This document shows positions 774-40,669 of a DNA stretch of 64,000 nucleotides, piece by piece. Position 1 is the stretch's first letter. Each line of letters opens with the position of its first letter. This stretch comes from Cyanidioschyzon merolae (taxonomy: Eukaryota): assembly GCA_000091205.1 (NCBI GenBank), contig AP006496.2, one strand, 5' to 3'. Position numbers and translations under genes: made by a program. Under the pieces are notes generated by a model. The model was not told the DNA's origin. It ran no database searches and saw nothing but the letters and a program-made list of their open reading frames with translations.

Positions 774-2555
774 TCAGAGCGCATCGCGTGCGGGGCAGAG
801 CGGTCCCAACGCACGACAAATCATGATGAGGAAGCGGGCATACGGATGAATTCCGCTTCTGCTGAACGTCGGTTGGGGCGGGGTTTGCGTTTGCGCATGA
901 GGCGCGATCGACCAGGCGCTCGCAGTGTACCGCTTGACCCGATGGTAGACGCGGAGAGGGAGAAACGCGAGGTGCGCCCATACCTGCGAAACGCGGCCGC
1001 TGTAGCAAGATACCAGATGATCGTTCACGAGAAGCGTCCCTGTATCGGTGAGTGGTGCCAATGCACCATGCACAGTGGTTTGATCAATCCGCACGACAAT
1101 GGCGGTGGTCAGCGCCTCCACGAGCAGCCTGGAGCCGACCTCCAACCTGCACGCTGGTACCATCTTGATCTGGCCATCGGAGGGGGATTTCACCGCCACC
1201 AAATGATCCGCAGAGAGTTCCAATGTGCCATGATCCGTAGTGATCCGGAGATAGAAGACTCCATAGTCCTCGGGTTCATAGTCTGCAAATCCGTACACTT
1301 GCGTCAGCAGACGAGCGTGCGGCTCAGTGGCGGCACGTGTCCATATCCATTCGCCGACACGCAGCTCTCGAAGGGCTCGCATCGAGCCGTTGCGCAAGCG
1401 CACCTGCATTTCTCCCGAGAGGCAGTTGCCTCGACGCGGTAGCGTCGCCCGTTCGCGCACGACCACAGCCGGCAAAATGAGGTCACCCGCCGAGGGCCAG
1501 AACGCACCCTCCAGGGATCCGTCGATCGGGGCATACACGGGAAACGTGTTCAGGTAGGGATCCGGCGGGCAGCGCGTCGTTCCCGCAAAATCGTGGCACT
1601 GGAACGCCACGTTGTACGTGATCTGGTATGCGCTGTTTTGTATGAAGTTCACATCGACGAGCTCGTGGCAGTACGGCTCGGAGCCCGCATAGCCGCCTTC
1701 GTCGACGGTGATTGTTGCGCCCCCGCGAATCGGGAACACGAAGGCAACGCCCGGATGGCGGATGCCGACGAGCGCCAGCGGCAAGTTCTGCACGGGGCCT
1801 TCAATTGGGGCGTACGGCCCAGTGCCAATGTGTGTCAGGCCGGTTTCCAGGTACGCTGGCCAGAAGGCGTTCCCGAATGCGTACCAGCCGCTGCCGAGAA
1901 CACCGCGGGTGAGCACCACGACGCCTTGTGATTCAGTAGGGTTCTGGAACGTCCAGCGTACCAAGCCCGCTGCTTGATCCACCCAAGTCCAGTGGACCTG
2001 GATTCCACGCCCACTCTGACAGAAGAAGCCGGTGCTGGTCGGGCTCGAAATCGGCGATGGAGGCGCGCTGACTGTTCTCGACTGTGACGAAGGTGTCGAT
2101 GGCGTGTCCGATTGCCGCTGAGATGGAGTCTGAACCAGCGTGGGTGTCGGTACCGTCGAGCAGCCACAGCAACAGCAATCGCGAGTACAGCACGACATAC
2201 AGCACGGGTAGCCAATGGTGGGTATGCTCGGGATCTGCGCATTGAGCGAGGGAATCTGCCCAAAAGAAACCGGAGGCAGAGACGGAAACGTGAATTTGAG
2301 CATGCCCACGGATCGTTCTCCATGCTCCAATGCGGATAACCAAGTTGAGCTTGTTCCGTTTGGCGTCTCTGTGCGAAACGATGCGTTCACCACGCGTGCG
2401 GATTCTGCGTTACGTGTCCATCCCGACCCGGTACTGCACTCTGTTTGCCTCACGGAGAAAGAGCGTGATTGAGCCGCTGCCAAGTGCTGAACAAATGCAC
2501 TGCTCGAGAGCCACCAGAGCATCAAAAGCGAGCGAAACCTTCTCGTTGAAATCAT
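774..2555 (-). CDS. Secreted Hint (Hedgehog/intein-type autoprocessing, Hog) domain protein with Cys-rich and S/T/P-rich N-terminal region
   Basis: Single 593-aa ORF starting at a true ATG (plus 2553-2555 = cat). N-terminal hydrophobic signal-like segment MISTRRFRSLLMLWWLSSSAFV. A Cys cluster (CCMSCCTRDCCCCGC) and an S/T/P-rich linker follow. The C-terminal half matches the Hint module: GNC-LSGEMQVRLRNGSMRALRELRVGEWIW (Cys-initiated N-extein junction), TTDHGTLELSADHLVAV and HGALAPLTDTGTLLVNDHLVSCYS, which parallels the hedgehog Hog motif ...APLT..GT..V..VLASCYA. Confidence 0.6.
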   Translation of the reverse strand: MISTRRFRSLLMLWWLSSSAFVQHLAAAQSRSFSVRQTECSTGSGWTRNAESARVVNASFRTETPNGTSSTWLSALEHGERSVGMLKFTFPSLPPVSFGQIPSLNAQIPSIPTIGYPCCMSCCTRDCCCCGCSTVPTPTLVQTPSQRQSDTPSTPSSQSRTVSAPPSPISSPTSTGFFCQSGRGIQVHWTWVDQAAGLVRWTFQNPTESQGVVVLTRGVLGSGWYAFGNAFWPAYLETGLTHIGTGPYAPIEGPVQNLPLALVGIRHPGVAFVFPIRGGATITVDEGGYAGSEPYCHELVDVNFIQNSAYQITYNVAFQCHDFAGTTRCPPDPYLNTFPVYAPIDGSLEGAFWPSAGDLILPAVVVRERATLPRRGNCLSGEMQVRLRNGSMRALRELRVGEWIWTRAATEPHARLLTQVYGFADYEPEDYGVFYLRITTDHGTLELSADHLVAVKSPSDGQIKMVPACRLEVGSRLLVEALTTAIVVRIDQTTVHGALAPLTDTGTLLVNDHLVSCYSGRVSQVWAHLAFLPLRVYHRVKRYTASAWSIAPHAQTQTPPQPTFSRSGIHPYARFLIMICRALGPLCPARDAL

Positions 2556-5299: not shown

Positions 5300-7264
5300 A
5301 TGAGCTTCGTGGGGCCCAAACCGACACCGACCTCCCGCATACGGAAGGACGACTCGCCGGAAACACGCAGCAACGGCAGTAGTGTGTCGCCAGTGGATAC
5401 CTCACCGCGAACCGCGCCACAAGAGGCGCAGCTTCAGCTCCCGAAGCGACGTGACTGGTACCGGATTCCGAATGCGGCAAGCGCCGGCGGAGTCGGGTTC
5501 TCTGATCGAGCAGAGCTCGAGCGACAGCGCCACGTTGTCCGGGATATGCTTCGGCAGGTTGGTTCTAGCTTCATTGAAGGCAAAGACCTCGTGAACGTAA
5601 GTTTACCGATTCGTCTGTTTGAGCCGCGCTCGTTCCTTCAGCGCCTAACCGATGATTGGGCGTATTGCTCAACGCTATTGAAAGCAGCTGCGCACGCGAC
5701 CGACACACTCGATCGCTTCAAGTTAACGATTGCGTTTGCCATTGCGGGTCTACACAAGTCGGCAACCATGTTCAAACCGTTCAATCCTTTGCTTGGGGAG
5801 ACCTTTCAAGCGTGTATGCCTAGTGATGGAACCCGGATTTATCTGGAGCAAACTTGTCATCACCCGCCGGTGACGCACTGGCGCATCCGTGCCGCAGACC
5901 GATCCTATGAGTTCACCGGTTTCGGCGCGTACAGCGCTCGCGTGCAGCTATTTGAGAACGCGATTCGCGCACAACGCCTCGGCGTCAACGTTGTCCATTT
6001 TCGCGATGGATCGCGCATTATTTTCTGGCTACCCTACATGAAAATACATGGCATTGTGTTTGGCGAGCGGCGCTTGGAATATCTAGGAAAGGCGGTGTTC
6101 TTGTACGAACCGCCACGCAATTTCACGACATCCGGTATACCGAGCCGAGCCTCGCTCTCAGACGGTGAAAACACCGAACAACGGCGAAGCAGCGAGACTT
6201 TTGCGGAGCCGGATCGAGCGCTCGTTGCGGTCATGCTTCTGAACAGCGAAAAAACTGGATTCGTTGGCACGCTTCGTGGCGTTGCACGCGGCATCGGTCG
6301 CATGTTTGGCGGTCGTAACAACAACAACAGCAGCAGCAATAACGCTAACGCTAACACCAATGCCAATGTCAGCAAGAGAACCCCAGTCGCAGGTGGCCGT
6401 CCCGTTAGCTACCCGACAGGGCGAGCTTCGAATGGCGCCATATCGGGGTTGGATACGAGCCGTCCGATACCAACAGATGTGTTTCGTGGCATCATCGCTA
6501 GTGTGGATGCACCACAGACACCGAACGCTGGCTATCTTGCCGGTGACGACTCGAGCACGACTCCAAGTCAGCCAGGCAGGCCCGGGCAACCCATACTGAA
6601 CGCACAGCGACGCAAAAGAATTACCCGCCGGCAGGTCAAGCAGCTTCTGGCAGAGTTTGCTACGCGTAATGGTCCGCTTGCCTCCAGTCCATGGTCGTCC
6701 ATGGACTGGCGAGCGAGCCAAGACGTGGACCAGGTTGCCGTTCGAGAGCAAGCGCCGAGTCTGTCGGTCACCGATGGCGTCTCCGATGCAAACCTGCAGC
6801 GTTCGTCGTTGTCGTCGTCCTCATTGGCTTCATCGGCACGCAACGATCCGTACCGGGGCGCCGGCAGACGCCAGCGTTCCCACAGCGCCCTCGATCCCGT
6901 TGTATTATGTAGTTTCGAGGGCACATACCTCGGATTCGTTGATTTTGATGGGCAACGATACTGGGATATTCGTGATATGCCAGGTGAGGCGCCGCTTCCG
7001 GTGCCGCTCGAGGAGGCGCTGCCCAGCGATAGCCGTTTCCGCGAAGATGCGCGGGCGCTTGCAGGCGCACTGCAGCCTGGGTTAAGTGAGCGAGAGCAAA
7101 GCGATCGCATGATGAAGGCGCAAGCAGCAAAAGAACGCGTGGAGAATCAACAGCGTGCAGATCGGGTCCTTCGCGAACGAGGTCGCCGCGAGCGTGGCAT
7201 CAAAGAATCCAACGCATTTGTTCCTGAGCGCATTCTCCGCGAAGATACGTGTTACTGGCCTTGA
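5300..7264 (+). CDS. Oxysterol-binding protein (OSBP/ORP family)
   Basis: 654-aa ORF from ATG at 5300. Contains the OSBP fingerprint region KPFNPLLGETFQ...EQTCHHPPVTHW (family signature EQVSHHPP). An N/S-rich low-complexity insert and a C-terminal K/E/R-rich coiled-coil-like tail are present. Confidence 0.8.
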   Translation: MSFVGPKPTPTSRIRKDDSPETRSNGSSVSPVDTSPRTAPQEAQLQLPKRRDWYRIPNAASAGGVGFSDRAELERQRHVVRDMLRQVGSSFIEGKDLVNVSLPIRLFEPRSFLQRLTDDWAYCSTLLKAAAHATDTLDRFKLTIAFAIAGLHKSATMFKPFNPLLGETFQACMPSDGTRIYLEQTCHHPPVTHWRIRAADRSYEFTGFGAYSARVQLFENAIRAQRLGVNVVHFRDGSRIIFWLPYMKIHGIVFGERRLEYLGKAVFLYEPPRNFTTSGIPSRASLSDGENTEQRRSSETFAEPDRALVAVMLLNSEKTGFVGTLRGVARGIGRMFGGRNNNNSSSNNANANTNANVSKRTPVAGGRPVSYPTGRASNGAISGLDTSRPIPTDVFRGIIASVDAPQTPNAGYLAGDDSSTTPSQPGRPGQPILNAQRRKRITRRQVKQLLAEFATRNGPLASSPWSSMDWRASQDVDQVAVREQAPSLSVTDGVSDANLQRSSLSSSSLASSARNDPYRGAGRRQRSHSALDPVVLCSFEGTYLGFVDFDGQRYWDIRDMPGEAPLPVPLEEALPSDSRFREDARALAGALQPGLSEREQSDRMMKAQAAKERVENQQRADRVLRERGRRERGIKESNAFVPERILREDTCYWP

Positions 7265-7461: not shown

Positions 7462-8460
7462 TTACGGCTGTGCGCGCGCTGTACTCGTTGCAGATACGCA
7501 GGGTCGAACGATAAAAATCACGCCGTCACCGCGCACAAACAGGCGCGAGATGAATCGCTCGCGCAAGTCTGGAGGCCGATCGGGTTGTGACTCCTGCCAG
7601 ATTTCCCGTACATGCTCCATAATGAGGTTAAAGTGCTTATCATAGGCGCGCAGCGTGCCGTAGAGCTTTTTATTATGACGACAGCTCACGAGACACGGCA
7701 CTCGATCGGTGATGCACCGGTCGAGCAGCGTGAACGGTGTTCGCGGCGAGCCGTTTGCGGCATGCACTGCTGGCTTCAGAGCTGACGCAGCGCTTTCGCT
7801 GCTATTCGGAATGCTCTGCGTCGTTGCTGGGGTCGTCGCTGCGATTAGCGTTTGGTAGGATGTCGAAGCTTCTGCTGCAGCGCTGAGCTCTGATGCGGCA
7901 GGCGTTGCCCCAGCTTGATCCAAGTGCGTGTCGTGTGCATCAAGGGGTCTTCGTTTCCGGGGCGCGGTAGGCGGGGCGCTGGCCGGCTCCGCCCAGCGTC
8001 GTTTTCGTCGTTGCGTGGTGGTCGTGCTCTGTGGATACGCGCTAGACTGGATCGGTGACGGCGATAGAGCAGCAGGGTCCAGGGTTTGAGCCAACTTCTG
8101 CTCCTGCTGCTGCTCCTGCTGCTGCTCCTGCTGCTGCTCCTGCTGCTGCTCCTGCTGCTGCTCCTGCTGCTGCTCCTGCTGCTGCTCCTGCTGCTGCGCG
8201 GACGATGTCGTCGTTGCGTCTCCAAGGTTGGTAGCCCGACCAGCTTCTCCCTGTGTGGCTCCAGGCGCGACGCTAGAGTCCTCATCGCGAGCCTCTTGTT
8301 CGAGTTTCACACCTAACAGGTCCAGCAAACGTTTTTGGAGTTCAGCCTTTCTACCGCTGGTTGGAGCTTCTCGCGCGGCAAGCTCCCGACGGAGCTGCGC
8401 CACCGTCAGTCCCGCTACAGCCCCCGCTTCTAAAGCAGTGGGCTGATCAACTGGAGGCAT
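7462..8460 (-). CDS. SAP-domain, Q/E-repeat, C-terminal Sm-like (LSm fold) protein
   Basis: 332-aa ORF with true ATG (plus 8458-8460 = cat). N-terminal SAP motif LTVAQLRRELAAREAPTSGRKAELQKRLLDLLG. Central (QQQE)n run. C-terminal Sm1/Sm2-like segments: RVPCLVSCRHNKKLYGTLRAYDKHFNLIMEHVRE and RLFVRGDGVIFIV. Confidence 0.55.
   Translation of the reverse strand: MPPVDQPTALEAGAVAGLTVAQLRRELAAREAPTSGRKAELQKRLLDLLGVKLEQEARDEDSSVAPGATQGEAGRATNLGDATTTSSAQQQEQQQEQQQEQQQEQQQEQQQEQQQEQQQEQKLAQTLDPAALSPSPIQSSAYPQSTTTTQRRKRRWAEPASAPPTAPRKRRPLDAHDTHLDQAGATPAASELSAAAEASTSYQTLIAATTPATTQSIPNSSESAASALKPAVHAANGSPRTPFTLLDRCITDRVPCLVSCRHNKKLYGTLRAYDKHFNLIMEHVREIWQESQPDRPPDLRERFISRLFVRGDGVIFIVRPCVSATSTARAQP
8096..8200. 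repeat. Imperfect (CTG/CTC)n trinucleotide microsatellite inside the SAP-Sm CDS, encoding the (QQQE)n tract
   Basis: Visible run ctgctcctgctgctgctcctgctg... across about 100 bp. Confidence 0.85.
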
Positions 8461-9093
8461 TCCTGCTCGCCAAGAGTGCTTATTTGGGCGTCATTAAACG
8501 ACCAGCGTTGACGATTGCACCAGCTTTACAACGAACGTCACGGAATGCGATCCATTCGCAGGGCGTTCGCAGAAACGCGTGTTCCGACGCCGCGCCCAGG
8601 TGGCATTGCAGCAGCTAGGATCAAGCGTTGTTGGTGCGGGGCTTTCACGCCTCTGTAGAACAGTTGCTCCTGGTGTTGTCATTGTTTTGTTTTTGGGCAG
8701 ACGAGACGCTTACAGGTAAGCACTGGGTAGGTCGTGTTGTTCTCCACAATGAGAACTCTGAGTTAGCCACGAGAGGGGGCGCCGCTGCTTCACGGGCTCG
8801 AAGCCTTGTCGCTGGGCACCAGTCTGGCGGGATGGGTTCGGATCTAGTACTGGGTGCTGGTTTGAACCTGAAAACGCGTCTGAATCCGAGGTATGCACCA
8901 CGCTAAGGTGTAGTGTTTACGCTGTCGGCGCGTTGAAGCGGACTTGCTGTTTCAGGAGTGCACACGTGAAAGGCCCCTTGGCCGTGACAAGCAGCGCACA
9001 CTGCGTGCCGCAGCTCAACAGACGTACTGCTTTCGCCTGGAGGCGCCGAAAGGGCGGCGGTGGTGGTGCTTTGGCGACGACCTAAGCCGGAGA

Positions 9094-10662
9094 TCATAAC
9101 CGGGTATCGTCGCTGACCTGCGGCGTTGCAACTTGGTTCTCCAACTGAGCGTAGACGTCGCAAAGCTGTTGAGCGGTTTCCCTCGCGAGATCAAACTCGT
9201 CCAAGTTCGACGCAAAGGGCGGTTCTCGGCAGTAGTTGTCCAGAAAAGCGTTGCGTCTGCGAAGCTTGTCGTAGGCAGCGATGGTGCGTCCCAACAACGT
9301 CGAGATGCCAGTGTGGTTTGCGAGCATAAGGCCGCGGACGCGGTGGGTGCATTTCAAGTAGGGGGACTTGCGAGCGAGCGTCACCTGTACGTTTGCTGAT
9401 GTAAGTGGTGTGAAACCGAGGTTTTCACGCTCCATCAGTCGCTGCAAGCTCCTCTGCACTTCGGAGGGGTCCTCGATTTCACCCTGTAGAACACCCAGCA
9501 GGGAAAGGTAGGAGCCACGACGAAGCGGGCAGCTCGCCATCAAGCTTTTTGGCTGGACTAGGCGTCGCATCACATCGTATACAGAGGTTTTTCGAATACG
9601 GCTTTCAGCGACCGGGAGCACTTGCGGCAGGCAGTCGACACCGGACGCGATCTGGTTAGTGTCCACATGTTTGGCGTTCATCTGGTTGGCGCCAGCGCCT
9701 GTGTAAATCGTGAGCGGTGTACAACTTGCCACCAGAAAGTGACAAGGCGGGAGCGGCACCAATGTAGACATCAGCTCCCGCAGATCTTGGTGGCTGTACG
9801 CTGGGAATCGCATCGTCGTGGTCGACGCTGCCATGACCATCGACACGAGGGCGTTCGTCTGGTCGAAGGTAGGGTTGTCCACGTACAAACGCTCACTCGC
9901 GATGCGGTTTAGTGCTGCATTATCGAGCACCGTGACCATATCCGCAAATTCAACGAGTCGTCGCAAGGTCAGTAGCGAGTTGTACGGCTGCACAACAACA
10001 TCGCTGAACATGGCGTTCGCATCGTCTTCTTCAGCGCCGCTGCCGCCACCGCTGGCTAGCCCCGTGGCGGCGCTGCCGCTGTTCGCATAATCCCTTGCGT
10101 CTGCATGGCGTTCGCCCGAGGCCACTGCGTACGACTGGTTCGGAAGGATAGAATAGGTCTGCACGACCTGCTTCGGGTAGCGATCGTGAAGCTGTTCCAT
10201 AACGTAGGAGCCGAGACCGCTTCCGGTCCCGCCAGCAACCGAGTGGCAAATTTGAAAGCCTGCTAAGCACTCGGCGTTCTCCGCCTCACGGTCGATCATA
10301 TCGAAGAGGAGCTCGTCGAGCATCTGTCCCTGGGTATAGCCGCTCGCCCAGTTGTTGCCCGCGCCACCTCGATCCCGAATGTCAAGAAAATAGTTTTCAG
10401 GGTTGAACAGTGACCCGTAGGCGGAGTTCTTAATCGATTGAATCACGCGAGGCTCCAGGTCAATAAGCAGTGCTCGTGGAACGTGCCTGCGATCGTCCGC
10501 TTCATAAAAGAAGGCGTCCTTGCGGTCCACGTTCGGGGCTGCGTAAGGTTCTAGCCGCCCATCCGGCCCTATGGCGTGCTCCAAACATAGCTGCTTCCAA
10601 AACTCGAGACCAATCTGATTCCCACACTGTCCTACTTGCAGCGTAAGCACCTCGCGCGGCAT
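9094..10662 (-). CDS. TUBG: gamma-tubulin
   Basis: 522-aa single ORF, true ATG at 10660-10662 (plus cat). N-terminus [25 protein letters not shown] matches the canonical gamma-tubulin [21 protein letters not shown]. Tubulin GGTGSG nucleotide-binding loop present ([13 protein letters not shown]). Contains a G/S/A/E/D-rich insertion of about 45 aa ([38 protein letters not shown]) between conserved blocks. Confidence 0.9.
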
Positions 10663-35130: not shown

Positions 35131-37046
35131 CGCGCTGAACCCGGCAAATGTTCCTGCAGCAGCGCTCCGCGCGGAATCGATACACAGCCGCACGCCATTC
35201 GCCTGCTACTGCGCCTAACCTTCGACCAGAGCAGTGTGTCTATTGTTCGCATGCGAATCACTGCTCGCAGACGGAGAACCTGGTGCAGCATCCCGACTGG
35301 AATCGACGGTCGGACTGCGCGGTGCTGAACCTGCGGGTACAATTTTGTCCGTACATACAGTCCATGGACAAAGCGCGTGTCGTGGAGCGTGCGAGCGCCT
35401 TGACGCCGTCGCGCGCTGGCGAATCAACGTATCCGTTCGTAGGGCTCGGTTGGCCCAGTTCGAGAGTGTTCACTACACGAGGCGAATCGCAGTCTCGGAC
35501 CAGTCGCTGCGTTCGCCAACGCTCGGCCTGGGAATCCGCAGCGACACTGCGACGCCATGCTGTCGCTGGAACGGAGGATCGTGTGGGCGGACCACTATCC
35601 CCGAATCAATGCTTGGATAACGGTAAAGAGGACTGGGAGGATTTGGTGCGCCATGTAGGCTTGCTTCCCGGATGCCGATAACCATCACATCATTGGGGAT
35701 CAGAGGTTAGATTCCAAAATCCTACACCATTAGGAATCACACTCGCGGTCCTGAGCACTTGGTAACCATCCGACACTCGGGGATTCCTCGTTAGATTCAA
35801 CAATGCTCTACCATGACGTCTTCCTATTGCTGGGTTCCGCCTGCGTTCGCCCGGGCGCCTCGCCGTGCTCCAGATGATCGATCATGGCGGAGCGTGCCAG
35901 CTGGAATCATCGCGAGGTATCGTGCCAGGCCCCAATATTACCTTGTGTGTCAAAGGCGGCACCGCGACGCGCACCAGCGACAGAGCCTGCAGCAAGAGAT
36001 TACTCTACGTGAGCTTCCGAGCTACGACACCTGATTTTCGCTGCAGTGCGATGCGAACACGCACGTGCGAGTGCGGGGTGTCGGACACGTGTCCTTCATC
36101 GATCGGTGAGGCGTCTCGCGCGGTGCACGCAGTGCGCTAAGTGAGCGTTCCTGGGAGATCAGGCAGGCATAAGACACGACGCGCGTGCCGCCGCTGAAGG
36201 GAAACGCGATCCTGATCTCTGGTGTGTTGTTCAGCTGTAAAAGTTGTATTCGCGCTGGAGTCGAACAAAAATATAGTTTTCAGTTCGTTTTTGTTTCAAA
36301 CTTCAAACAAGTCTAGTCAAATGTTTTTTCGCAGTATATAACAGAAGGGTTTAAAGAGCGTTCAAGAAATATAAAAATAAAAAAACGGAAAAAGGAACGC
36401 TATGAAAAAGCAAATGCACGATCCTGGAGGCCCAGGTTCGCCGGCTGCCAGAAAAAAATAGTGCCGAGTCCAGAAGAAAAGGAAGAGAAGAAGGACCGAA
36501 AGGCGGAGGTCCTACGTCGAAGGCGGCAAGAAAGACGACTGTACGACGAGATGGTGGTGAAAACCTTTCTTCTTGGACATATCAAGGATCCGTACAGGGA
36601 AAAGTTGCGAGACGCTATCGAAAAACGTGTTGCGTCATACTCCAAGAATATTATAAAGGCGTCGTCAGGACTGATGCATTTAGCAAGGGAGATGTACGAA
36701 GACGTCGCGAACATGGAAACGGTCGAGATTCCAGACGAGTTTTTCGACAAACCTTTATTCGTCAGCTGATGCTTGGCACAGGGGAAGTGCGGAGGGAAAA
36801 TGAGCGGGTGCGCGCCCTCCACGAAAAATATCCCTTTTACAGCTTCAATGGTACTCGATACAAGGGTGACCGGGGTATTTACGGCTACGGGGCGATGAAG
36901 TACCCCACGAACCTGAAGAACCATTTGACAGAGAACTTCGAACGTTTCATGGTACGCGCCGTGTTTGCGCTGTATCCGGACATCTCTCGCAATGGAAAAT
37001 GGGCGATGATCAACGGCATCACGAGCGATCGCAAGCATGAAGATGA

Positions 37047-38618
37047 GGTCGAATTTGTCGACAAGAAAGCGCCAAACGAGAACACGAATGAAGCTTCTGT
37101 AATCCGTGCGGTTATACAAGAGCATCGTGCGGTACTGGGGCTGGCGTATCCAACAGACAAGATATCAGCGTTGAAAAAGATAAGGAAAGATACTATCGCC
37201 TCATCCTGCGATATTTCGTGTTTCTGGACCGAGAGCTCGAACGCAAGGCAGAAACGAAGCTAAGTGAAGGAAAAAATGAAGAGTGGGAGAGACGGAAGGC
37301 TGCCCTAATGGGGAAGCGCTTCGATGTGGTTCCAGTGTGCAAGATCAAGTCACATTTTGTGACTATCGACTCCGGCGTCCTCTACGGCATCATGAGGGAC
37401 ATCAGTCCGGAGTTCAGTGTCAGCAGGGAGAACTTCACCGGCGAAAACCGGGAGACGTACTTGAAGAACATCTCCAATTTCAAACGTCTGAGAGTGAACA
37501 AGCAAAAGTTGTTCACTGGGATGATCGAAACCGATGGAGTAGCCTTGTGTGTACACTATCGGCGGTTGAAGAAAGATCGGCCAGTTCCGCCCTCGGCTGC
37601 GCCCGTGACGAAGGGTGCAGAAAAGAAAGAGGCGGATCCTGAGACGCAGGAGGTGGAGGATAACGACTTTGTCGTTGAAGTGACGAAGGATGAAGATGAG
37701 AAGGAGGCGGATCCTGCGACACAGAAGGTGCAAGATAACGACCTTGTCGTTGATGCGGCGAAGGATGAAGATGAGAAGGAGGCGGATCCTGAGACGCAGG
37801 AGGTGGAGGATAACGACTTTGTCGTTTGCGCGGACCCTGGGAACACGAATATCATCACCATCGCAGCACCGAAGCGTGCGGAAGATGGTACTGATGGTAA
37901 CGTACGTCAGAAAGACATGCGAGTTTTGAGGATCTCGAGAGCGAGATACTATCGAGAATCGGGAATAATGAATGCGAGGAAGAAAATTGCTACATGGAAT
38001 GCAGGAATGAAGGATCACCTGGAAGCTTTGAGTGAGGTGACTAGCCGAAGAGCGGACTTTCAAGCTTTTCGGAAATTCATGGAAGTTTGCATTGTCCATT
38101 GGGATGCACTGTGGGAGGAGTATACCAAGGCCCGGTGGGCTCGTTTGCGTATGAATTTGTATTGTGGGAAGCAGCGGGGGTTCGCGAATTTATTCAATAA
38201 CTTGAGCGCCTTGAAGGAGGATGAAAATCAGAGGCTCGTCGTAGCATACGGAGCAGGGCGCTGGAAGACCCAAAAAGGGACTACTCCAGCTCCAACGACA
38301 AGAACATACAGGGAGTGCGCACGGCGTTTCGTTACGATACCTGTAGATGAGTTCCGAACGTCCTATGCACACCATGAACTGGGTTGTACACTTCAGAGAG
38401 TCGAGATGGAAAAGTGCCAGAGGAGCGCTGAGGAAATAGCAAAGTACGGACCGCTGACGGAGGCGCAAACGGAAAGGAGTGCGAAAGTTCGTGGACTACT
38501 CGCTTTAGTGAGTATAACTCCGGACGGGAAGAAACGTATGGAGTTTGTGAACCGAGATTTTAATGCCGCAATCAATCTACGGAAATGTGCGGTACTGGAC
38601 AAGAGACCTCCAGAGTAG
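37047..38618 (+). CDS. Intact C-terminal about 520-aa portion of the Fanzor/TnpB-like protein containing the split RuvC-like nuclease and zinc-ribbon motifs
   Basis: RuvC-I-like [17 protein letters not shown] (Asp in ADPG, about nt 37824-37845). RuvC-II region [17 protein letters not shown]...TRTYREC lacks the canonical Glu, as reported for Fanzor1 proteins with a relocated glutamate (from memory). RTS zinc-ribbon region [13 protein letters not shown]...EMEKC at about 38355. Ruv[18 protein letters not shown] at about 38550 (TnpB DRDxNAAxNI). Stop at 38616-38618. Confidence 0.7.
37626..37826 (+). repeat. 75-bp (25-aa) tandem repeat x2.7 inside the Fanzor ORF, immediately N-terminal to the RuvC-I motif
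   Basis: Protein repeat [25 protein letters not shown] / [25 protein letters not shown] / [22 protein letters not shown]. The nucleotide unit ggcggatcctgagacgcaggaggtggaggataacgactttgtcgtt... recurs with a 75-nt period. Confidence 0.8.
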
Positions 38619-38750
38619 ACAAGAGAGAACTTTATTGGACAACCTCTCAAAGTCGAACTATATGAGAAAATGTTGGAAGCAGTAGTGGGTGGCCGGTCCA
38701 AAAAGACGGGCAGGCGTCTGCACATCAGTCAGAGACGATTTGTCTAAGGC
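38560..38750 (+). ncRNA. Candidate omega-RNA / right-end region of the Fanzor element (3-prime end of ORF plus about 130-nt conserved tail)
   Basis: By analogy with TnpB/Fanzor systems, the guide-RNA scaffold overlaps the ORF 3-prime end and the transposon right end. This tail (ggacaacctctcaaagtcgaactatatgagaaaatgttggaagcag...ggtggccggtccaaaaagacgggcaggcgtctgcacatcag) is conserved in the second family-1 fragment at 54860-54990, although that copy's coding sequence is destroyed. Confidence 0.3.
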
Positions 38751-38843
38751 GCGTTCGCCGCCATTACTGTACGCCGCCGACGTCGTTCGACTCTCGAAAG
38801 GCGTTTAGTCGTGGCGACAAGTCTGCAGTTCCAGTTGCAAGCA

Positions 38844-39122
38844 ATGGGCAAACGCACACGGAAAGTGGGCATCTGCGGCAAGTACGGTACGAGGTATGGA
38901 GCGTCACTGCGAAAAACCGTGAAGAAGATGGAAATCACCCAGCACGCCAAGTACACGTGTCCGTTTTGCGCGAAGGATGCAGTGAAGCGGAAGGCAGTCG
39001 GCGTATGGGAGTGCAAGCGCTGTCGGAAGCGGATAGCTGGTGGCGCCTGGGTCCTGAACACCACCGCAGCGGCAACAGTGCGCACGACGATTCGTCGTCT
39101 GCGCGAGACCGTGGAGCAGTGA
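38844..39122 (+). CDS. RPL37A: 60S ribosomal protein L37a (eL43)
   Basis: [88 protein letters not shown] matches eL43 almost residue for residue, including the C4 zinc ribbon. ATG at 38844. The track ORF starts at an upstream GTG at 38811. Confidence 0.9.
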
Positions 39123-40669
39123 GGCTGTTCGGAGAAGGACAACGAGCACTGGGTGGCGTCTTGGATGAAAGTCGGCGAGGATGTGTCTAGTTCAAGGCGA
39201 ATGCGGCCTGTGCTGGGAGCACTAGCTAATTCGTATCGCCTACGCGCGGTTCGCTTGGTAATGAACGCCACGAGATAGCAGCGTGAGGTATGCAGCGCGT
39301 TCGACACCCAACGAGAGTGCTCCGAGTGAGCGCGCGCGACCTCTCGAGCTTGTACTGTGGGCACTTGTCGAATTGATATTCGGAGTGGCACGCCGCCACG
39401 CGCATCACTTGGAGATTACTGGTCCTGTGTGGTGATACGTTTCGCATGCCGCTTTGAGTGTAGCGTGCGCCTGTCGAGCGTCCACCGTTCGTAAGGTGTT
39501 GCGCGAGATAAGAGTCCCGCGCATTCCGCCCGCTAGAGCTTGATTATCCGATGATACATGAACGACTAGCTTGTCGAAACGTTAGCGGTAAAGAAGCGAG
39601 TATCTAGCGTACAAGACGCGTGTAGCTTTTCGCTCCTAAACACTGTACGCAGTAAAGAGCGCACGGCTTGGTGTCAGTCTCGAGCGCATGAACGACCACA
39701 GTGTTCTTCGATGGTTTGTGTAAAACTGGGCCCGCCTGAAAGGACAGCGATCTACGACACGATTAGCATCCGCGGACGCCTGGTCAGAGCGATCGGGATG
39801 CCTGTGGAAACGCGTACTTGCCGACGTTTGCAGGCGCTCACGGGCGGCCTCGGTGGCAGGGGCGAAGATCGAGCCCCTGCATCGATGATGCGTCATGCTT
39901 CTCTGCAGACGATTTAGATGCAGTCAAATGGGACTCGGCATCGAAACTGTCGTTACCTGCTGACTAGGTTGCCACAGCACGTAAGCAAACCTGCCGGCAA
40001 CCCCGGTGTGCGCCTTGCCGCGAGTGCTCACTTTTGAATGACTGCTGCGAGCCTGTGTTCGCTACAGGGCGCGACTACCCAGAGTCGCCCGGCACCAGTG
40101 CGTGTGCTCGTGACGACAGCAGCGCTGAACGCAGGTGATTGAGATTTGCTTACCTACCGGCTCGCTGAGCACATCGATTCACTGGACATGCGCGAACGAA
40201 GAGCTTTTCACGTGAAGCTACCATATCTCCCTGAGCGGATATGGCTTTCTGTCTGGACTGTGCAGAGGCAGCGGCGCCAAGTACGTTGCACTCGGATGCT
40301 CGCACGCTGCTGTTGCAACGCTGCAGGCACGCCAGAACTGCCACTACGGAGATACAGCATGCGATGCGCGGTTCTCGATACGTCCGATGATGACGCAGTT
40401 GTAGGTATCGCCCAGAACACGTGGTGGCTTTCCGAGCTCAGTCCATCGTCATGCTCCAGTGCGCATGGATTATCATGCAGCCGGGAGCCATAAAATGGAG
40501 CGCGAGACTGCGATGAACGCTTGCTACAGTGCTGAATGTGTTGCCACTGTCGCCGCACGGAAACAGCGCAAGTCGTCGTGTCGATGCTGGGGCCCACACG
40601 AAAGGCCGGATCGTAATGCGAGCGAGCGCAGCCCCGCGTTAGATGGTTAAACACATGTCAGACTAGAAT

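Follow-up and report, generated by a model that had tools for sequence, protein, structure and literature searches.

Hedgehog proteins mature by autoprocessing, in which an N-to-S acyl shift at a cysteine is followed by attack of a sterol on the thioester; Asp303 of Hedgehog is needed for the sterol transfer and dispensable for thioester formation. Here, we describe a gene at positions 774..2555 (minus strand) of a 64,000-nucleotide stretch of Cyanidioschyzon merolae DNA (GenBank assembly GCA_000091205.1, contig AP006496.2; the whole stretch is called the window below), which encodes a precursor of the Hog family, and we focus on the domain that precedes its Hog module, the presumptive cargo. 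Hog proteins with orphan N-terminal regions have been described from red algae, mosses, alveolates and other protists (Burglin 2008; PMC2362128), and gene families with Kelch, trefoil and Hint domains (K/T/H) have been described from the Cyanidiales (Cho et al. 2023; PMC9812998). A 2026 paper in Plant Cell re-classed the cyanidiophyte “hedgehog” genes as non-Hedgehog (non-Hh) Hog genes, counted 17 Hog genes in C. merolae, found Cyanidiophyceae Hog genes to be expressed mostly in haploid cells and describes the cultured model strain 10D as wall-less (PMC13353863). The present gene has for a long time been labeled hedgehog-like in the annotation of strain 10D, for which Nozaki et al. 2007 is cited.

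The open reading frame (ORF), whose coordinates are exact in the ORF listing of the window, encodes 593 amino acids plus a stop and is identical at 593 of 593 positions to BAM81372.1 / XP_005537408.1, which is encoded on chromosome 14 of C. merolae 10D, annotated as “similar to hedgehog protein” and a member of the cluster of a 99%-identical representative (P0001). Besides this gene, seven ORFs of the window are identical to C. merolae 10D proteins encoded on a record of 852,727 bp; neighbors with such matches include gamma-tubulin (BAM81375.1), a protein “similar to oxysterol-binding protein” (BAM81373.1), CMN316C, CMN317C and CMN319C. The original prediction, made from the letters of the window, had proposed a Hog-type protein of a microbial eukaryote, and that organism is C. 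merolae 10D. Its motifs (TTDHGTLELSADHLVAV, APLTDTGTLLVNDHLVSCYS, the G-N-C junction and GFFCQSGRGIQVHWTWVDQAAG...CPPDPYLNTFPVYAPIDG) are all present in the ORF translation, so that its observation is confirmed and its interpretation supported, with the qualifications that the gene was annotated already, that its cargo has a family, and that the supposed rarity of Hog proteins outside animals is outdated given the many eukaryotic groups and the 17 C. merolae genes cited above.

The gene and its class are therefore already known, and as a Hog protein its product holds nothing new. The sole new element is that its “orphan” cargo belongs to an unnamed family that is shared with Thermoplasmatota and with viruses of the Ligamenvirales, and that this cargo has a confident predicted fold. 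From N- to C-terminus, the protein consists of a signal-peptide-like start, a Pro-rich motif, a Cys cluster, a linker rich in Ser, Thr and Pro (S/T/P), a beta-sandwich cargo, a Hint module and an adduct recognition region (ARR), with equivalents of the five catalytic residues of Hedgehog. By analogy with the latter, we consider it likely that the gene product is a secreted, self-processing Hog protein, the cargo of which is shared with archaea, viruses and a few bacteria.

The cargo belongs to a family of archaeal and viral proteins

The cargo domain covers amino acids (aa) 175-366 (1458..2033, minus strand; ~190 aa) and was assigned to its family with the phrog_6678 profile, tblastn, an AlphaFold2 (AF2) model and a comparison with the predicted viral structures in BFVD. 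No Pfam family matches the query cargo at E-values up to 10. The phrog_6678 profile matches it at E=4.3e-16, with positions 32-187 of the 235 in the profile aligned to aa 187-335, and likewise matches the other five of the six algal proteins tested (1e-13 to 1e-16) and two metagenomic proteins that have no Hint module. The ~200-aa domain before the Hint module had been proposed as a cargo without a nameable family: it is indeed unnamed and uncharacterized, but a family does exist, which can be described as phrog_6678 or SFV1 ORF28-like. Homologs of SFV1 ORF28 have been reported from Lipothrixviridae and Rudiviridae, with nothing more said about the protein (PMC6105669), and we found no paper that links this family to red algae or Hog proteins.

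Three further searches were consistent with this assignment. With a profile (A2) derived solely from seven algal sequences, we recovered two metagenomic proteins that lack Hint (E=3.5e-14 and 5e-11), one encoded on an archaeal-virus-like contig among short, packed, unannotated ORFs and HTH_45 genes, the other on a short contig with archaeal-type neighbors (DUF2153 and a DNA polymerase). When the cargo was compared by tblastn with 50,697 phage and archaeal-virus records, matches were confined to Rudiviridae and Lipothrixviridae of Sulfolobales, the best being orf32 of Sulfolobales Mexican rudivirus 1 (SMRV1; 32% identity over 82% of the domain, E=2e-14), with SIFV0066 and SIFV2 gp61, a “conserved lipothrixviral protein”, also among the matches. 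Finally, an exhaustive hidden Markov model search of 1.84 billion representatives yielded 173 members at E<=1e-3 (116 at <=1e-10), mostly stand-alone proteins of 200-300 aa. Among the members are ten algal proteins in which the cargo is combined with a Hog module (cargo+Hog proteins); one of these is the paralog from C. merolae, BAM81542.1, which lies on another sequence record, of 902,900 bp. All four genera of cyanidiophytes have the family. In Galdieria phlegrea, some proteins consist of the cargo alone, with a hydrophobic, signal-peptide-like N-terminus, and in others the cargo is followed by a TP-linker and repeats. Bacterial members come from Paraburkholderia and from a metagenome-assembled genome of the Acidimicrobiales.

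We also scanned prokaryotes, with one genome per species, and found 45 loci. The alignment of 44 sequences (A4) proved too divergent for scanning loci, and a tighter sub-alignment (A5) was used instead. As A5 leans toward a Thermoplasmatota-like subgroup, the following taxon counts are no census: 43 loci are archaeal, mostly from Thermoplasmatota (including Oxyplasma meridianum and Cuniculiplasma), with a few from Nitrososphaerota and one from Marsarchaeota, and two are bacterial records. The genes surrounding these loci look cellular, e.g., a peptidase M50 and a transposase fragment.

Across 44 diverse family members, R217, F227, Y235, F272, E286 and G288 are invariant. The family motif reads RG...YxFGxAFWPxY...EGGF, with Y-x-FGNAFWPAY ... 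DEGGY as the core of the query, and the conserved polar and aromatic set (R217, Y225, F227, W232, Y235 and E286) falls within RG...YxFGNAFWPAY...EGGY. In four archaeal or viral members from metagenomes (P0038, P0039, P0059 and P0133), an intein that bears a LAGLIDADG endonuclease interrupts the domain directly after FGNAFW (FGNAFW, then C...THN, then C/S). As inteins usually take sites in functionally critical regions, their insertion right after this motif suggests that FGNAFW is functionally critical. In a number of prokaryote-like members (P0076, P0081, P0063, P0069, P0078, P0126, P0065 and P0073), two of which are assigned to bacteria (Paraburkholderia and Acidimicrobiales), the domain, which received no Pfam assignment in these proteins either, is fused to WHxW propeller-like repeats, to WWWYWG repeats, to LysM and a right-handed beta-helix, or to regions of ~800 aa without a known domain. 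A weak hint that the domain binds glycans or surfaces comes from the LysM, beta-helix and propeller-like repeats that accompany it in a few bacterial members.

A cargo-only family member from Cyanidium (P0033, CDCA01G0095) is named “Pherophorin domain-containing protein” in UniRef100_A0AAV9IPP8. We rejected this name for the family, as Pfam gave no pherophorin match at E-values up to 10 for P0033, P0005, P0035, P0053 or the query cargo; the label either comes from another signature or is unreliable.

The cargo is predicted to fold as a beta-sandwich

An AF2 model of aa 175-366, based on the 44-sequence alignment, was mostly beta and had a pLDDT of 95.1 and a pTM of 0.91, while a full-length model based on six sequences was poor (pLDDT 38.5) and was set aside. 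In BFVD, the only significant matches of the cargo model were proteins of SFV1 (A0A346LU67, TM 0.75) and of Sulfolobales Beppu rod-shaped virus 1 (SBRV1; A0A3Q8Q407, TM 0.72). Both are whole-length matches (199-205 aligned columns, probability 1.00, E about 1e-11), and A0A346LU67, at 205 aa, has the size of ORF28-205. Solved structures gave nothing comparable: Foldseek against the PDB returned no match below E=0.37, and a PDB sequence search with the cargo profile returned nothing meaningful (4iyk at E=0.098). About 80 of the 192 modeled residues align with Ig/FnIII-like beta-sandwiches such as RbmA, transglutaminase beta-barrels and Ig-like domains of GH2, at 5-15% identity. Judging from the model, this likeness is that of a generic Ig/FnIII-like beta-sandwich core, at the level of the fold only.

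The C-terminal module is a Hog domain

Hint (PF01079) is the sole Pfam match of the protein, even at E-values up to 1. It matches aa 374-581 with E=1e-32 and 113.9 bits, far above the curated cut-off of 29.7 bits, and covers profile positions 9-209 of 213. NCBIfam gave no match for the whole protein. Using PF01079, the alignment of 1at0_A (1-145) and residue mapping, we placed the Hint module proper at aa 378-519 (999..1424, minus strand). It is followed by an adduct- or sterol-recognition-like region at aa 520-593 (AHLAFLPLRVYHR ... GIHPYARFLIMI; 777..998, minus strand), assigned by alignment to Drosophila Hedgehog (Hh) 403-458, and preceded by the junction RERATLPRRGN at aa 367-377 (1425..1457, minus strand), where alignment with Cys258 of Hh-C predicts the scissile bond between Asn377 and Cys378. 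In a sequence search of all PDB chains, the only real matches were Hedgehog proteins of Drosophila and human; the best of these, 6td6_B (Drosophila Hh, E=4.6e-13), aligns Hh 257-458 with aa 377-578 and spans the sterol-recognition region (SRR) and GIHWYA. Within this alignment, aa 520-578 match Hh 403-458, and AHxxFxPLR and G(I/L)HxYA are kept in all ten algal cargo+Hog proteins.

Catalytic residues were mapped by aligning these ten proteins with Drosophila Hh-C17. Equivalents were found, on the minus strand, for Cys258 (C378, codon 1422-1424), Asp303 (D425, codon 1281-1283), Thr326 (S448, codon 1212-1214), His329 (H451, codon 1203-1205) and Cys400 of motif J (C517, codon 1005-1007). The C378, D425, H451 and C517 columns are invariant in the ten proteins and Drosophila Hh, and the S448 column holds Ser in the ortholog group of the gene and Thr in the paralogs (S448-A-D-H451 versus TxxH). 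The Hint module of the original prediction is thus borne out by the profile search, its catalytic Cys, His and Thr all align (with Ser for Thr here, and with Asp and the second Cys conserved as well), and the match runs on into the sterol- or adduct-recognition region for which it had proposed a check.

In the Pfam scan of the protein, there was no HhN or “Hedge” signaling domain at E-values up to 1, no Kelch or trefoil domain, and no Intein_splicing, LAGLIDADG or other homing-endonuclease profile. On sequence grounds, the module is a Hog domain in Burglin’s sense (Hint plus ARR), and neither Hedgehog nor an intein. A bona fide Hedgehog is ruled out by the absent HhN, in line with the re-labeling of such genes as non-Hh Hog in the literature; membership of the Kelch+Hog or trefoil families is ruled out as neither profile matched.

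Orthologs, paralogs and the surrounding locus

A word-indexed search returned five relatives: the Cyanidiococcus yangmingshanensis ortholog CCYA08G2262 (P0002; 59% identity), a metagenomic ortholog (P0003; 59%), Cyanidium caldarium CDCA04G1189 (47%), a relative at 43% identity (P0004) and a fragment from the gene’s own cluster (P0001). When identity to P0002 and P0003 was broken down by part, the cargo reached 69-76%, the Hint module 49-55% and the ARR about 42-50%; the cargo is therefore the best-conserved large part between orthologs, above Hint.

The Cyanidium gene, CDCA04G1189, is the syntenic ortholog (L003 6001-7017). It has a genuine stop ~17 residues before the cleavage site and lacks Hint, and 360 bp separate it from the following gene, a cargo+Hog paralog, which leaves no space for a Hint module in between. 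CDCA04G1189 is thus a natural “pre-cleaved” cargo, in which the Hog module was lost or was never present. In the relatives, a second cargo+Hog paralog (~36% identity) lies in tandem downstream (8071-9549 of the metagenomic contigs L001/L002; 7378-8853 of L003); the corresponding position in the window, below 774, is beyond its left edge.

The gene order gamma-tubulin, SAP+LSM protein, oxysterol-binding protein, Hog gene is common to the window, the metagenomic contigs and Cyanidium. Because this synteny with the oxysterol-binding-protein, SAP/LSM and gamma-tubulin genes is kept in three genera, it argues for a stable, old and non-subtelomeric Hog locus, unlike the variable subtelomeric arrays of most K/T/H genes. 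The oxysterol-binding-protein gene (window 5300-7264, plus strand; L001/L002 1745-3670; L003 1213-3321) lies a few kb upstream of the Hog gene in C. merolae, the metagenomic relative and Cyanidium, with small ORFs or genes in between, and the Cyanidium locus has a 3-beta-HSD-like gene nearby (L003 9805-10893). This proximity of sterol-related genes to a putatively sterol-transferring protein may be a coincidence. Elsewhere in the window, positions 36001-40000 show a strong strand asymmetry (GC skew 0.15-0.18, AT skew 0.09-0.18) and a GC content of 0.50, below that of the rest of the window; this segment overlaps an ORF of 466 aa (37218-38618, plus strand).

Regions N-terminal to the cargo

The regions preceding the cargo are all encoded on the minus strand. 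A putative signal peptide was recognized by sequence inspection at aa 1-28 (MISTRRFRSLLMLWWLSSSAFVQHLAAA, with cleavage before QS; 2472..2555). As the original prediction had it, the start of the protein is signal-peptide-like, judged by eye from the n-region RRFR, the h-region LLMLWWLSSSAFV and a cleavage motif in which AAA precedes Q, and a comparable hydrophobic segment opens all orthologs and paralogs. Alignment of orthologs revealed a conserved Pro-rich motif at aa 83-117 (VGMLKFTFPSLPPVSFGQIPSLNAQIPSIPTIGYP; 2205..2309), which is 77% identical to the Cyanidiococcus ortholog, versus 22% for aa 1-82. Next come the Cys cluster and S/T/P-rich region that had been noted earlier. The cluster, aa 118-132 (CCMSCCTRDCCCCGC; 2160..2204), has nine Cys in 15 residues; it is 80% conserved in Cyanidiococcus, kept in the metagenomic ortholog, partial or reduced in Cyanidium and absent in P0004, and candidate roles are metal binding, a disulfide knot or a palmitoylation-like site. 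The linker, aa 133-174 (2034..2159), consists of S/T/P for 69% as computed by a composition script, and presumably forms a mucin-like, O-glycosylated stalk.

Processing, origin and alternative explanations

Following the Hedgehog paradigm, the precursor would enter the endoplasmic reticulum and the secretory pathway, where, with the help of Ser448 and His451, Cys378 would attack the carbonyl of Asn377 in an N-to-S acyl shift. The thioester would be resolved by an external nucleophile, most plausibly the 3-beta-OH of a sterol that is placed by the ARR and activated by Asp425, or else by water or another adduct. An N-terminal product of ~350 residues, made up of stalk and cargo, would be released, possibly ester-linked to a lipid, and could be displayed on the outer leaflet of the plasma membrane of the wall-less cell. 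We favor an adduct because the Asp is invariant and the SRR-like motifs are retained. Our best guess for the cargo is a role in binding or adhesion at the surface, with glycans as possible ligands. That the cargo is an independent functional unit is argued for by its conservation, which exceeds that of Hint, by the Hint-less Cyanidium ortholog and by the cargo-only proteins of Galdieria; since these Cyanidium and Galdieria versions have no Hint, the cargo would also work without an adduct added by a Hog module.

Several points weigh against this scheme. Cleavage and adduct formation, in this protein as in any red-algal Hog protein, are assumed by analogy with Hedgehog, and the signal peptide, a by-eye call, is putative. 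Since a signal peptide is missing from the archaeal and viral homologs, these give no pointer to an extracellular role, and SFV1 gp28 is not one of the proteins VP3-VP8, which are annotated as virion proteins in its part of the viral record. At the junction, G-N-C-L, the residue at position -1 to C378 is Asn and not the Gly of Hedgehog (N, H, T, V, S or G across the family), Leu follows Cys378 where Hedgehog has Phe, and Ser stands in place of Thr326. As for the first of these substitutions, a Gly before the nucleophilic Cys marks Hh proper and is no requirement for Hog proteins.

The alternative that fares best accepts cleavage by the Hog module, with the thioester resolved by water or a non-sterol nucleophile, so that the cargo would be soluble and secreted instead of lipid-anchored. 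We regard this as possible, if rather doubtful. The very term ARR owes its existence to an adduct that is undefined outside Hedgehog (PMC2362128), the ARR is conserved at only about 42-50% between orthologs, and the Hint-less Cyanidium and Galdieria proteins point to a cargo that can work without a Hog adduct; this alternative is harder to reconcile with an Asp303 equivalent that is invariant in all ten proteins and with the retention of a region that aligns with the Drosophila SRR and contains GIHxYA.

With regard to the origin of the cargo, we built a neighbor-joining (NJ) tree of 86 sequences and 188 columns, from which redundant cluster members had been removed. This tree, which is unrooted and rough, grouped the Cyanidiales sequences in one clade with a bootstrap of 81% and those of Galdieria in another with 64%. 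The closest non-algal sequences (P0047, P0067 and P0034) share the QC...CPPNP cysteine pattern of the algal proteins, and two of these, P0047 and P0034, have ordinary prokaryotic gene contexts. Because the family is found in one eukaryotic class and in many acidophilic archaea and their viruses, which share a habitat, the Cyanidiophyceae probably acquired the cargo by an old horizontal transfer in acidic geothermal habitats, followed by duplication and by fusion to a eukaryotic Hog cassette. More specifically, and only tentatively, we propose that the cargo originated in archaea or archaeal viruses and was gained by the cyanidiophycean ancestor in acidic hot springs, and that its fusion to Hog caused it to be secreted, cleaved and lipid-anchored on the naked cell surface. 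Monophyly of all algal sequences received a bootstrap of only 47% in the NJ tree, however, and transfer into the algae is no more than the likelier direction.

This leaves some room for the opposite history, in which the cargo family began in a eukaryotic or algal lineage, from which archaea or their viruses took it up, or for a family so old that no transfer is needed. The unrooted tree with its weak algal monophyly would accommodate such a history, as would the age of the family within the Cyanidiophyceae, where both Galdieria and Cyanidiales have it. We nevertheless think it improbable, given that the named eukaryotic members are from Cyanidiophyceae only, that the 173 representatives and 45 loci are mostly prokaryotic or viral, and that the nearest non-algal relatives sit in ordinary prokaryotic contexts.

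Two other explanations concern the Hog module itself. It could be catalytically dead or repurposed, with the protein left intact and its hydrophobic C-terminal segment serving as a membrane-associating tail, a reading favored by the non-Gly residue at -1 and the Ser for Thr326; yet Thr to Ser is a conservative change, and an inactive module would hardly have kept all five catalytic positions in ~10 diverged orthologs and paralogs, making this very unlikely. An intein or bacterial intein-like element that performs protein splicing can practically be dismissed: although Hint modules are common to inteins and genuine inteins do occur in archaeal and viral members of the cargo family, those lie inside the cargo after FGNAFW and are of another type, splicing and endonuclease profiles remained unmatched here, all matches to solved structures are Hedgehog proteins, and there is no C-extein, as the protein ends 74 residues past Hint with a Hedgehog-type ARR.

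The finding on the cargo is of interest but modest. A Hog cargo that was considered an orphan is now assigned to a family, with a confident predicted fold, and is linked to a conserved gene, unassigned in function, of the filamentous viruses of Sulfolobales and of acidophilic archaea. This link probably adds to the cases in which genes have moved between domains of life in acidic geothermal habitats. In the literature, we came across no Hog protein with a released domain of prokaryotic or viral descent. As C. merolae is genetically tractable, both non-animal Hog autoprocessing and the role of the domain are directly testable, and if the archaeal or viral origin holds true, the alga would provide a tractable eukaryotic handle on a protein that is conserved in Rudiviridae, Lipothrixviridae and Thermoplasmatota.

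Comparison with known systems

With the HhC of Hedgehog (PF01079; PDB 1AT0 and 6TD6), the protein shares the profile family, the five catalytic equivalents and the SRR motifs AHxxxxPxR and GIHxYA; it differs by having no “Hedge” domain and by the Asn for Gly and Leu for Phe on either side of the Cys. Its overall layout, with a signal peptide and a lineage-specific N-terminal domain followed by Hog, is that of the non-Hh Hog proteins of protists, mosses and red algae and of the Hog and Kelch+Hog proteins of Cyanidiophyceae (PMC2362128, PMC9812998, PMC13353863). The S/T/P-rich linker is likewise a feature of the K/T/H families of Cyanidiophyceae, but unlike the Kelch and trefoil Hog genes of that class, the present gene has a cargo that is neither Kelch nor trefoil, and whereas most K/T/H genes of Cyanidiales lie in variable subtelomeric arrays, it lies in a block that is syntenic across three genera. 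In multicellular red algae and mosses, the Cys of motif J is replaced (Burglin, PMC2362128), while the present protein keeps it. Finally, the cargo is homologous over nearly its whole length to the phrog_6678 proteins (SFV1 ORF28/gp28, SMRV1 orf32, SIFV0066, SIFV2 gp61 and the Thermoplasmatota homologs), with which it shares the conserved R, F, Y, F, E and G. These viral and archaeal proteins have neither signal peptide nor Hint and carry a Cys-containing helical tail at their C-terminus instead, whereas the algal versions have extra conserved cysteines (C179, C296, C320 and C329).

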